Positions 48,477 through 51,756 of a stretch of DNA of 64,000 bases are shown here, piece after piece. Position 1 is the stretch's first letter. Each line of letters begins with the position of its first letter. A program made the position numbers and the translations under genes. Where the stretch lies: contig CBDFMQ010000002.1 in assembly GCA_965249725.1 (NCBI GenBank), forward strand, positions 448,001 through 512,000. Reading direction: 5' to 3'. This DNA comes from Longimicrobiales bacterium (GTDB lineage: Bacteria > Gemmatimonadota > Gemmatimonadetes > Longimicrobiales > Gaopeijiaceae). Below the pieces are notes generated by a model, which searched no databases, had not been told where the DNA came from, and saw nothing but the letters and a program-made list of their open reading frames with translations.

Positions 48477-50300
48477 ATGCCCACTTCGAACGTCCCACGC
48501 CTTGAAGACTACCGCAGCGGGCGGGCAAAACGGTCTGAGCAGACCGCGGCGCTTTACCGAGGAGATCCCGCACGGTCTTGCCTTTTGGGGCATCTTGCCT
48601 CGGCGCAAGAGTTGGTGGGGGCCGATCGGGCCGCTGTGGTATGGGTCGACGAGTATGGCCCAGGCTTGGTTCACGTCCATTGCCTACTCGATCTCGTAGG
48701 GAACCCTCCGCGACGCGATTCTGTAGCCCAGGCGTGCAGGGTAGCCTGGGGCAAGGGTGTGCCCGGTCTCCTCGATGTGCCGGACGTAGAGCGCGGCGGT
48801 GGAATCCCCATATCCGGGGTCCGCAGCTCTTGCTGCGTTGCGATGGGAAGCGATGGGACCCGCGCGTGGTTCCTGGTGGTCGACTCCCTGACACCTCGAT
48901 CGTGCTTGGCGGTCGAGGTCACCGACGAATTGATGTTCGTTGCGGGTGAAGCCGCTGCGGTGGTTCTCCATCAGGATCTGGACCGCAAGGCCACTGGCCC
49001 GAGGCGATTCGGAAAGAGTGCCAGTCCGGAGGCCGGTGAGACCTTCTCGGGATGGGCGATCCTCAAGGACCTCGACGGTCGTGAGGCGGACGCCGAAACG
49101 AATCGCCGCATCGCTACGCGCTTCCTCGTCGCACGTGCGGTGCGCTCCGCTCTGGACGAGGAGCTCACCATGGATCCCGAGGCTCTTCGGCAGCAGGTCG
49201 AAGGAGTGGGGCGTGAGCTCGACGCGGTAGAGCGGGGCGATCCCGAACGCACGGCCTGGGGAGAGGTCCTAGAGGCTCTCGGCTCCGGGGACGGGGTCGA
49301 GCTTGGACGTTCTCTCCTCGAGTTGGCGGATCGCGTGGACATGCTCGGGCACCTGCATGGGTCCCGCGAGCTGTGCAGTCTCGCCTACCAGGTAGCCGTG
49401 ACCTGTGGGTCTGGTGCGATCGCCGGTACCGCGGCCCGCTTCCTGGGTAGAACGCATCGGCGGCTCGGGGCGTGGGAGGACAGCGAAACTTGGTACGGCG
49501 TAGCCCAAAACCTGGGCGAGGCGCTCGGCGACGGGAGGCTCTCGGCTCTGGCCACGAACGGTCTTGGGAGCACCAGCCGCGAGAAGGGCAACCTGCCGCG
49601 GGCTCTCGAGCTGCACACCGAGACTCTGCAATGGGGCGTCGAGGACGGGGACCGCTACATCCAGGGGCTCAGTCATCACGATCTGATGACGGACCAGAAG
49701 CTGTCAGGGCGTTTCGGAGACGCGATTCGGCATGGCTGGGAGGCGGTTCGCCTCTATCCATCCGAGCGAGACCAGCTGCAGGCCCTCACCGACCTGGCAT
49801 GGGCGTTCGTCGAGGTGGGCGAGTACGGAGCTGCCGAGGATGCCTACACCGTGGTGGCGCATCGCACGCAGGACTTCAGATATCGGGTGTATGCGCTCGA
49901 CGCCCTGGCGTATATCGAGGCTCTCCTCGGGAGACGCGAACAGTTCGAGGATCGTATCCAGGCGGTTGACGAAACCCCCTGGAGGACCGGACAGCCCTTC
50001 ATGGTCTCGGAGCTACTCTACTACCGAGGCAAGGCGTACGGCCTTTTGGGCGACGTCGAACTGGCACAGCGTTGGCTTGCGGAGGCGAAAGCCTACTCCG
50101 AAGAACACGGCAACAACCAGATTTCATTCCAGGCGGAGACGGCCCTCGAAGCCCTCGAGTCTGGAGAACTCACGGATGAGGACGCGAGCGGCCGCGCCGA
50201 GCCCGTATCGCTCGACGATATCGATGGCGTCCGCACCGAGCTGAGCTCGATGCGGGGCCAGTTGGTTACAGCAGGTGGAGCGGAGGTACCGGCTACTTAG
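48477..50300 (+). CDS. Cytoplasmic protein with N-terminal GAF-like domain and C-terminal TPR array
   Basis: ADRAAVVWVD...CCVAMG...FLVVD...ELMFVAGEAAAVVL (GAF-like); repeated TPR helices such as FLGRTHRRLGAWEDSETWY, NGLGSTSREKGNLPRALELH and YYRGKAYGLLGDVELAQRWL. Confidence 0.75.
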   Translation: MPTSNVPRLEDYRSGRAKRSEQTAALYRGDPARSCLLGHLASAQELVGADRAAVVWVDEYGPGLVHVHCLLDLVGNPPRRDSVAQACRVAWGKGVPGLLDVPDVERGGGIPISGVRSSCCVAMGSDGTRAWFLVVDSLTPRSCLAVEVTDELMFVAGEAAAVVLHQDLDRKATGPRRFGKSASPEAGETFSGWAILKDLDGREADAETNRRIATRFLVARAVRSALDEELTMDPEALRQQVEGVGRELDAVERGDPERTAWGEVLEALGSGDGVELGRSLLELADRVDMLGHLHGSRELCSLAYQVAVTCGSGAIAGTAARFLGRTHRRLGAWEDSETWYGVAQNLGEALGDGRLSALATNGLGSTSREKGNLPRALELHTETLQWGVEDGDRYIQGLSHHDLMTDQKLSGRFGDAIRHGWEAVRLYPSERDQLQALTDLAWAFVEVGEYGAAEDAYTVVAHRTQDFRYRVYALDALAYIEALLGRREQFEDRIQAVDETPWRTGQPFMVSELLYYRGKAYGLLGDVELAQRWLAEAKAYSEEHGNNQISFQAETALEALESGELTDEDASGRAEPVSLDDIDGVRTELSSMRGQLVTAGGAEVPAT

Positions 50301-50536
50301 CCGTTGCCGCCCGGATTGTGCCCGTTACCACCGGGGTTATGTCCGTTGCCACCAGGATTATGCCCGTTGCCACCAGGATTATGCCCGTTGCCGCCGGGGT
50401 TATGGCCGTTGCCGCCAGGATTGTGAGTCTGGCAGAGGCTGTCACCGGCTGCGCAGTCCAGGCCTGCGGGCGATGAGCAGGCGCTCAGGGCGAACGAAAG
50501 GGCGGCGACGGCGAAACAGAGGCGAAGCTTGGTCAT
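50297..50536 (-). CDS. 79-aa secreted (lipo)peptide precursor ending in (HNPGGNG)x6
   Basis: GGAAGGA SD, MTKLRLCFAVAALSFALSA-C lipoprotein signal, short two-Cys linker, six identical heptapeptides with synonymous-only DNA differences. Confidence 0.85.
   Translation of the reverse strand: MTKLRLCFAVAALSFALSACSSPAGLDCAAGDSLCQTHNPGGNGHNPGGNGHNPGGNGHNPGGNGHNPGGNGHNPGGNG
50300..50425 (-). repeat. 21-bp coding tandem repeat x6 (HNPGGNG)
   Basis: 126 bp = 6 units of CAYAAYCCNGGYGGYAACGGN on the minus strand. Confidence 0.95.
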
Positions 50537-50668
50537 CAAACCAGTTTCCTTCCAGAAGAGAGACTCTGGCTGGGGAGTACGGTACGTCATAGCTTGGTTG
50601 TAAGGTGGATGCGGCATCTTTGGGTGCCGCAATCCTTTCCGACTAGGGGTATACCTTTTCCGAAGGTC

Positions 50669-51519: not shown

Positions 51520-51756
51520 ATGACTGAATTCCTGGACGAATCAGGACGCGCCTGGGTGGCGACCGTACGATCGGAGTCGGGTACGGACTACAAGGGCCGC
51601 TACTACCTGTACCTCGCGGAAGAAGGTGCGACCGACGCCGGAGTCAGCCTTCTGGACGTGCGGTGGAACAGCCCGGGCACGGCGGAACGAGCGCTCTCCA
51701 CGATGTCCGACGTCGAGTTGCGCAGGCGACTACGGTCAGCCCTGGGACGGGCCTAA
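51520..51756 (+). CDS. Small hypothetical protein
   Basis: 78-aa ORF with typical codon usage filling the gap between the AraC gene and dacB. Confidence 0.65.
   Translation: MTEFLDESGRAWVATVRSESGTDYKGRYYLYLAEEGATDAGVSLLDVRWNSPGTAERALSTMSDVELRRRLRSALGRA

Follow-up and report, generated by a model that had tools for sequence, protein, structure and literature searches.

A conserved, apparently undescribed peptide-receptor-regulator cassette in Gemmatimonadota with a multi-core mini-lipoprotein as candidate signal precursor

The sex pheromones of enterococci are cut from the signal peptides of lipoproteins and are sensed by a cytoplasmic protein of the tetratricopeptide repeat (TPR) type. Peptide pheromones that are read by cytoplasmic TPR receptors have been described for the Bacillota, and the RRNPPA propeptides are 50–120 aa in length, bearing C-terminal pheromones of 5–10 residues that are sometimes present in 1–4 tandem copies, according to the passages of the source drawn on here (PMC11343458). 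In the excerpts used, Rap proteins act on response regulators (PMC5199041, PMC3601965), and both mixed variants and duplicated copies are reported among phr genes (PMC5199041). The cited text on NprR-NprX and PlcR-PapR of the Bacillus cereus group describes heptapeptide signals that bind the TPR domain and are divided into strain-specific pherotypes (PMC4147580). RRNPP_detector, as set out in the part of its publication quoted here, takes signal peptidase II-type export tags at its relaxed level only (PMC10075063).

We analysed a stretch of 64,000 nucleotides from a Longimicrobiales bacterium (hereafter the window), in which a first-pass annotation, made from the letters alone, had picked out a small lipopeptide precursor gene with six identical cores. 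Gemmatimonadota, the phylum concerned, are abundant and mostly uncultured. The observations reported below are three genes in a conserved arrangement, selection on the cores, cores that are specific to lineages, and co-change between the core and the groove of a TPR protein. Together they describe a conserved peptide-receptor-regulator cassette that is real and apparently undescribed in the literature searched; no description was found there, the coverage being incomplete and the supplements of PMC10075063 lying outside it. Features of the cassette in the window are listed in Table 1.

Table 1. Features of the cassette, with positions counted from the first letter of the window.
Feature	Position	Strand	Basis or remark
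TPR protein, 607 aa, candidate receptor	48477..50300	+	Pfam TPR_12 E 5.7e-9; model pLDDT 88.1
Mini-lipoprotein precursor gene, 79 aa	50297..50536	-	ATG 50536, TAA 50297; translation
Six tandem seven-residue cores, ending flush with the stop codon	50300..50425	-	translation
Linker of 17 residues with Cys28 and Cys35	50426..50476	-	translation
Signal peptide and lipobox, Cys20 at its end	50477..50536	-	translation; 19-residue signal peptide
Ribosome-binding site of the precursor	50548..50553	-	purine-rich, 11 bases 5' of ATG (sequence)
7-bp inverted repeat, 8-base spacer, in the divergent promoter region	50610..50631	.	read from sequence
Two-part conserved cis element, directly 5' of the regulator start codon	50629..50667	+	in 60/62 intergenic regions
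Regulator, 267 aa, atypical receiver and AraC-type helix-turn-helix	50669..51472	+	Pfam HTH_18 E 2e-6, below curated cut-off
Hypothetical gene, 78 aa, 3' of the regulator	51520..51756	+	conserved in 62/66 loci with room

The gene order is TPR protein, precursor and regulator, the TPR gene being convergent with the precursor in the middle and the receiver-AraC regulator divergent from it. Using motifs of the receptor, we collected 80 loci, of which 79 are labelled as Gemmatimonadota and one as ‘uncultured bacterium’; 68 of the 80 hold the end of the TPR gene plus 500 bases, and are referred to as loci with room. Among these the regulator is found in 68/68 and the precursor in 67/68, 63 precursors having been recovered by pattern and four by eye (L131, which is partly masked, L133, L156 and L166). 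In the remaining locus, L147, the precursor is broken by an internal stop. L133 likewise has a damaged precursor, its array being frameshifted, and damaged receptors occur in L104 and L106 (internal stop or frameshift).

Beyond the family, the best 28 further loci of the phylum carry a convergent mini-lipoprotein in 27 cases, a regulator nearby in 27 and the same order in 26, one of the 28 (L089) stopping at a contig edge; precursors in these other families have mostly a single core, often placed between two Cys. Within the family, 43 of the 121 genomes have a receptor match; the receptor profile (E <= 1e-8) finds 91 of 151 phylum genomes, weaker TPR paralogues being counted as well. The chromosomal neighbourhood is fixed within the family, with a zinc-ribbon membrane gene in 76/80 loci and a D-Ala-D-Ala carboxypeptidase gene in 41/66. 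The 78-aa gene 3' of the regulator, for which no family was matched, is possibly a fourth member of the cassette. L074 departs from the usual layout in that its regulator shares a strand with the receptor and lies 5' of it, and its precursor tail is acidic and rich in Asp/Asn.

The genome of the window has a second TPR paralogue (L022; G000:C3:2921139-2922888, +) with a convergent 45-aa mini-lipoprotein (2922751-2922888, -), beside which no AraC neighbour was seen; a similar pair is present in L066. Two orphan paralogues of the regulator (G000:C1:88760-89632, +, E 3.6e-44; C3:2749184-2749978, -, E 3.2e-10) are possible partners of this second receptor. At G000:C1:740716-745260 four genes stand in a row, a lipoprotein-like gene and then two TPR genes with a sigma-54-type activator-like gene between them. 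At G000:C1:523157-523913 there are 108-base tandem repeats with a 36-residue period, which we take to be probably a Sel1-type repeat gene.

The precursor gene matched no family in Pfam or NCBIfam. Over its region the frame on the plus strand is interrupted by a stop, and the coding strand is the minus strand. Its signal peptide and lipobox were read directly from the translation; in 65 relatives, which were themselves picked by a lipobox pattern, the residue preceding the lipobox Cys is Ala (60), Ser (3) or Gly (2). Genes for Lgt and LspA (lgt and lspA) were found in the genome of the window, and a sigma-70 promoter scan returned no promoter. The original description of a lipoprotein-type precursor with several cores is upheld. 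The two-Cys linker that was part of this description is present in the window, but at least two extra Cys occur in only 32/65 precursors, and the pair Cys28/Cys35 is a possible disulphide loop that would be optional in the family.

The six units all have different DNA but the same protein sequence, with exactly the codon strings that had been listed: neighbouring units show 18 differences over ~25 synonymous sites, against none over ~80 non-synonymous sites. When 53 distinct arrays of the window and its relatives are taken together, pS is 428/875.5 = 0.49 and pN is 44/2748.5 = 0.016 (pN/pS ~0.03 between copies), pN being somewhat lowered by the definition of array units, which allowed <=2 residue differences; this supports a real gene under purifying selection, as had been proposed. 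The register in which the core was first written is fixed by single-core orthologues and by the stop codon. Six units are likewise present in L102, an orthologue from the same genus, with another synonymous pattern and one residue change, and hence arrays are being reshaped while the peptide is maintained. When the 4.16 Mb genome was translated in six frames, the first five core residues had one further occurrence, in single copy. The whole stretch is present without differences in contigs of three public runs; this argues only against a private assembly slip, as the runs may be the source of this DNA.

A search for related repeats, which the first-pass annotation had recommended, was productive: cores of 6–8 residues in 1–8 copies were found across relatives, lineage-specific and usually flush with the stop codon, and 43 of the 61 that follow a seven-residue register are distinct. 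Among these 61, the first residue is His in 32 cores and Tyr in 16, the third is Pro in 45, the fourth is Gly in 38 or Asp in 21, the sixth is Gly in 43 or Asn in 15, and the seventh is Asn in 31. Divergence of cores is fast even inside the genus and its sister genus, amplification to 6–8 copies is repeated, and two variants are mixed in some arrays. In several relatives the tail extends past the last core or is bracketed by Cys, so no single processing rule fits all of them. In L116 and L063 there are two tandem precursor genes per receptor, diverged in the former and nearly identical in the latter.

Core types track the clades of the receptor in a quick tree of 63 rows, the 81 loci having been reduced by 16 without a computed core label and two with frameshifted receptors; kin share labels, so that kinship alone could produce this agreement, which is not proof. 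Seven loci that were missed by the pattern and labelled by hand lie outside the tree and the co-change sets. Peptide matches outside the cassette (e.g. L008, L010, L012, L013 and L015-L020, among 20 matches) were rejected as low-complexity chance matches.

The TPR protein is laid out as an N-terminal alpha/beta domain (~30-165), a helical linker, about seven TPR repeats (256-562) and a C-terminal helix. No hydrophobic signal sequence was seen at its N-terminus by inspection, and this, with the TPR_12 match and the TPR fold, is what is expected of a cytoplasmic TPR receptor. Its stop codon overlaps that of the precursor by 4 bases, an overlap repeated in 13 loci. Fold searches with the model returned TPR solenoids, LGN first (Z 19.3, rmsd 6.0, 307 aligned), then Rap, NprR and PlcR lower (RapH: Z 16.9, rmsd 4.5, 287 aligned). 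Profile matches to NprR and a Rap were weak (E 0.004–0.008) and ranked below LGN and OGT. Pfam gave no helix-turn-helix match in the protein, whose N-terminus is the alpha/beta domain followed by helices at 193-248. A complex prediction for the 42-residue repeat tail and residues 190-607 of the TPR protein (score 0.02, mark 0.32) is no evidence either way.

Fourteen of the 22 invariant receptor columns are in the N-terminal domain, which is absent from the forms of 420-480 aa found in other families. By our own reading, based only on the order of helices and strands, this domain is GAF-like; there was no Pfam GAF match, and matches to the TPR part took up the fold searches. A stand-alone protein of ~240 aa (G000:C1:372287-373015, +) matches the N-terminal domain alone (E 1e-13), and a similar match is present at G088:C16.

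The regulator starts 132 bases from the precursor, and its model (pLDDT 91.6) has a five-stranded alpha/beta N-domain whose fold matches are response regulators. The receiver keeps Asp10 in 46/54 and Asp51 in 51/54 sequences, the switch Thr/Ser and Lys are absent, and a kinase was not found among the 13 neighbouring proteins scanned. On these grounds a canonical two-component response regulator was rejected; a receiver lacking the switch Thr/Ser and Lys is probably governed by a protein partner and not by a kinase.

The conserved cis element lies ~25 bases 5' of the regulator start and is a candidate promoter, operator and/or ribosome-binding site. It is unique in the genome (best score 37.1 here, next 13.4) and occurs in none of 34 loci that belong to other families or to paralogues, and a regulon could therefore not be inferred from it. 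The 7-bp inverted repeat is possibly an operator or a hairpin; across 60 loci the equivalent 28-base stretch has a mean fold of -7.7 kcal/mol, against -5.0 kcal/mol for shuffles. In the intergenic regions of L075-L101, which lack the conserved cis element, a different element between precursor and regulator, apparently repeated twice, was seen only as recurring short translated words, and in L102 an insertion-sequence-like ORF separates precursor and regulator.

Co-change between core and receptor was measured over the 54 loci for which all three of core, receptor and regulator were at hand, four of the 65 cores being off the seven-residue register and seven more loci lacking a full receptor or regulator. 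Trees were made from random halves of the columns and only held-out columns were scored. The groove was defined as TPR positions 2, 5, 6, 9, 12 and 13, a set chosen after a first run had shown enrichment in helix A; the same positions are given as ligand-contacting in the cited portion of PMC1261162. That first run used a tree of the N-domain and the regulator, a design biased towards TPR columns, and the results rest on the held-out designs. Mean best correlation with the core was 0.238 for 38 groove columns, compared with 0.160 for 181 other TPR columns, 0.131 for the N-domain and 0.136 for the regulator (rank test for groove enrichment, p 4.4e-6). Controls from the same gene, being seven linker and seven signal-peptide positions, gave no groove enrichment (p 0.5 and 0.31). 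When 2000 rate-matched pseudo-cores were drawn over 49 thinned loci, none reached the groove value, 0.7% reached the gap between groove and helix B, and 3% that between groove and other helix-A positions. The signal is modest (single columns have r up to ~0.5), its columns are not independent, and the TPR numbering was taken from Gly anchors in sequence.

This evidence is indirect but specific, and suggests that the tail, and not the rest of the precursor gene, is tied to the TPR groove; we hold it highly probable that the core peptide is the ligand of the TPR protein. The co-changing positions (e.g. 318, 365, 398, 405, 435, 439, 472, 475 and 516 in the TPR protein of the window) predict sites of specificity. 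Co-change would also be expected if the tail binds the TPR protein within the producing cell.

We favour the view, as probable though well short of certain, that the precursor is the propeptide of a Rap-Phr-like three-gene peptide/receptor/regulator system, the core of which is released and sensed between cells. The precursor would leave the cytoplasm by the Sec route, receive its lipid at Cys20 and be cleaved by signal peptidase II, whereupon periplasmic or surface proteases would free the C-terminal seven-residue units, six per precursor giving a higher dose. A peptide permease would take the cores back into the cytoplasm, either of the cell that made them or of a related one; three full genes for family-5 peptide-binding proteins (SBP_bac_5) and one fragment are present in the genome of the window, and are candidate permease parts only. 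With a lipid-anchored precursor and two membranes, release and re-import would be less direct than in Bacillota. Once inside, the cores would bind the TPR groove, and the TPR protein, apparently having no DNA-binding domain, would then release or engage the adjacent receiver-AraC regulator; its conserved N-terminal domain may contribute a small-molecule input. Autoregulation at the conserved element 5' of the regulator is the simplest guess for the output. More tentatively, and as slightly less likely than not, we suggest that the cassette is an independently built peptide quorum-sensing family of Gemmatimonadota, in which lipid-anchored precursors with up to eight cores would mature beyond the inner membrane and the cores, once re-imported, would meet a TPR receptor acting on a kinase-less receiver-AraC partner. 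There would be dozens of lineage-specific pherotypes, and in the family of the window the N-domain would bind a ligand as a second input.

The same parts could serve a single cell, if the tail binds the TPR protein yet reports the state of the cell's own envelope or export and not the presence of neighbours, the source being either unexported precursor in the cytoplasm or fragments that come back after periplasmic proteolysis. Such a monitor would account for the core-groove co-change and for a lipid anchor that keeps the precursor on the cell, and would fit the fixed position beside the D-Ala-D-Ala carboxypeptidase gene. However, it needs neither the rapid divergence of cores within the genus and sister genus nor their amplification to 6–8 copies, both of which are shown by kin-specific signals in the quoted part of PMC5199041, and we judge it unlikely. 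The precursor might, alternatively, remain intact as a small surface or periplasmic lipoprotein with repeats that do their work where they stand, and would then be controlled or accompanied by the TPR protein and regulator without tail binding. The lipobox is conserved, a divergent regulator could merely control the gene, and gene order alone is heritable, all of which would agree with such a protein; it is nonetheless improbable given that co-change with the core is specific to the groove and absent for the linker and signal peptide, that 1–8 copies are tolerated in a mature chain of just 20–68 residues across relatives, and that the pairing recurs at a paralogous TPR gene.

Two further readings concern the chemistry of the peptide and go back to the first-pass annotation, which had likened the gene to a pheromone or RiPP precursor and had raised cleavage after Gly-Gly. 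The likeness to a pheromone gains from the candidate receptor and regulator that flank the gene. A multi-core RiPP precursor whose modifying enzymes are encoded elsewhere would match the multi-core layout and the Cys pairs of some relatives, and the TPR protein has a weak match to the RiPP-associated HaaT model (27 bits vs a cut-off of 1125). Yet neither a modifying enzyme nor a double-glycine transporter was found among the 13 neighbours scanned, a lipoprotein signal takes the place of a RiPP leader and no modifiable residue class is conserved, which makes the RiPP half of the comparison weak and this reading very improbable. Cleavage after Gly-Gly was to yield a metal-binding peptide with N-terminal x-x-His (ATCUN), and His is indeed present in all units of the window and is the commonest first residue of the cores. 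Across relatives, Gly-Gly-x-x-His occurs in only 3/65 precursors, Gly-Gly lies inside 6/61 cores and His anywhere in 34/61, 27 having none; L105, an orthologue from the same genus, has a single core that lacks His. Neither His nor Gly-Gly is conserved, and the ATCUN and double-glycine readings therefore fail as explanations for the family, metal binding being to our minds scarcely credible. Metal titration could not decide the matter, since a synthetic x-x-His peptide binds copper whatever its role.

Were the signalling proposal true, it would provide the first candidate cell-to-cell signal for Gemmatimonadota, and phylum-wide, TPR-read peptide signalling in double-membraned bacteria would widen a picture based on Bacillota. 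It is testable without culturing, the cores being short linear peptides with dozens of natural receptor-core pairs, and these pairs also form a natural series on which the duplication-and-divergence model could be examined for the evolution of signals.

Rap-Phr of Bacillus and its phages (including the tandem Phr3T and Phr105) is the RRNPP branch that lacks a DNA-binding domain. With it the cassette shares a TPR protein beside a short exported propeptide, candidate cores of 6–8 residues that are usually C-terminal, tandem copies that are identical or diverging, whole-gene duplications (here L116 and L063), a receptor in which no helix-turn-helix was matched, and a plausible target that resembles response regulators. 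Unlike Rap-Phr, it has a diderm Gemmatimonadota host, convergent genes, up to 8 copies where 1–4 are quoted, an extra N-terminal alpha/beta domain and a dedicated receiver-AraC neighbour; it also occupies a fixed chromosomal place, whereas many Rap-Phr loci are mobile. The precursor carries a lipobox, which would direct it to signal peptidase II, in contrast to signal peptidase I in RRNPP. Its 79 aa fall inside the range of 50–120 aa, and some relatives with a single core have fewer than 50 aa. RRNPP systems are described from Bacillota, against 79/80 loci labelled as Gemmatimonadota here, and the likeness to Rap and NprR is no greater than general TPR likeness, so that membership of RRNPP is not established by these comparisons. 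NprR and PlcR carry their own helix-turn-helix, whereas DNA binding in the cassette would fall to a separate gene. With the enterococcal pheromones the cassette would have in common a signal from a lipoprotein precursor and a cytoplasmic TPR sensor; there the pheromone is a piece of the signal peptide, whereas here the part under selection and in co-change is the C-terminal tail, the signal peptide showing no such co-change.
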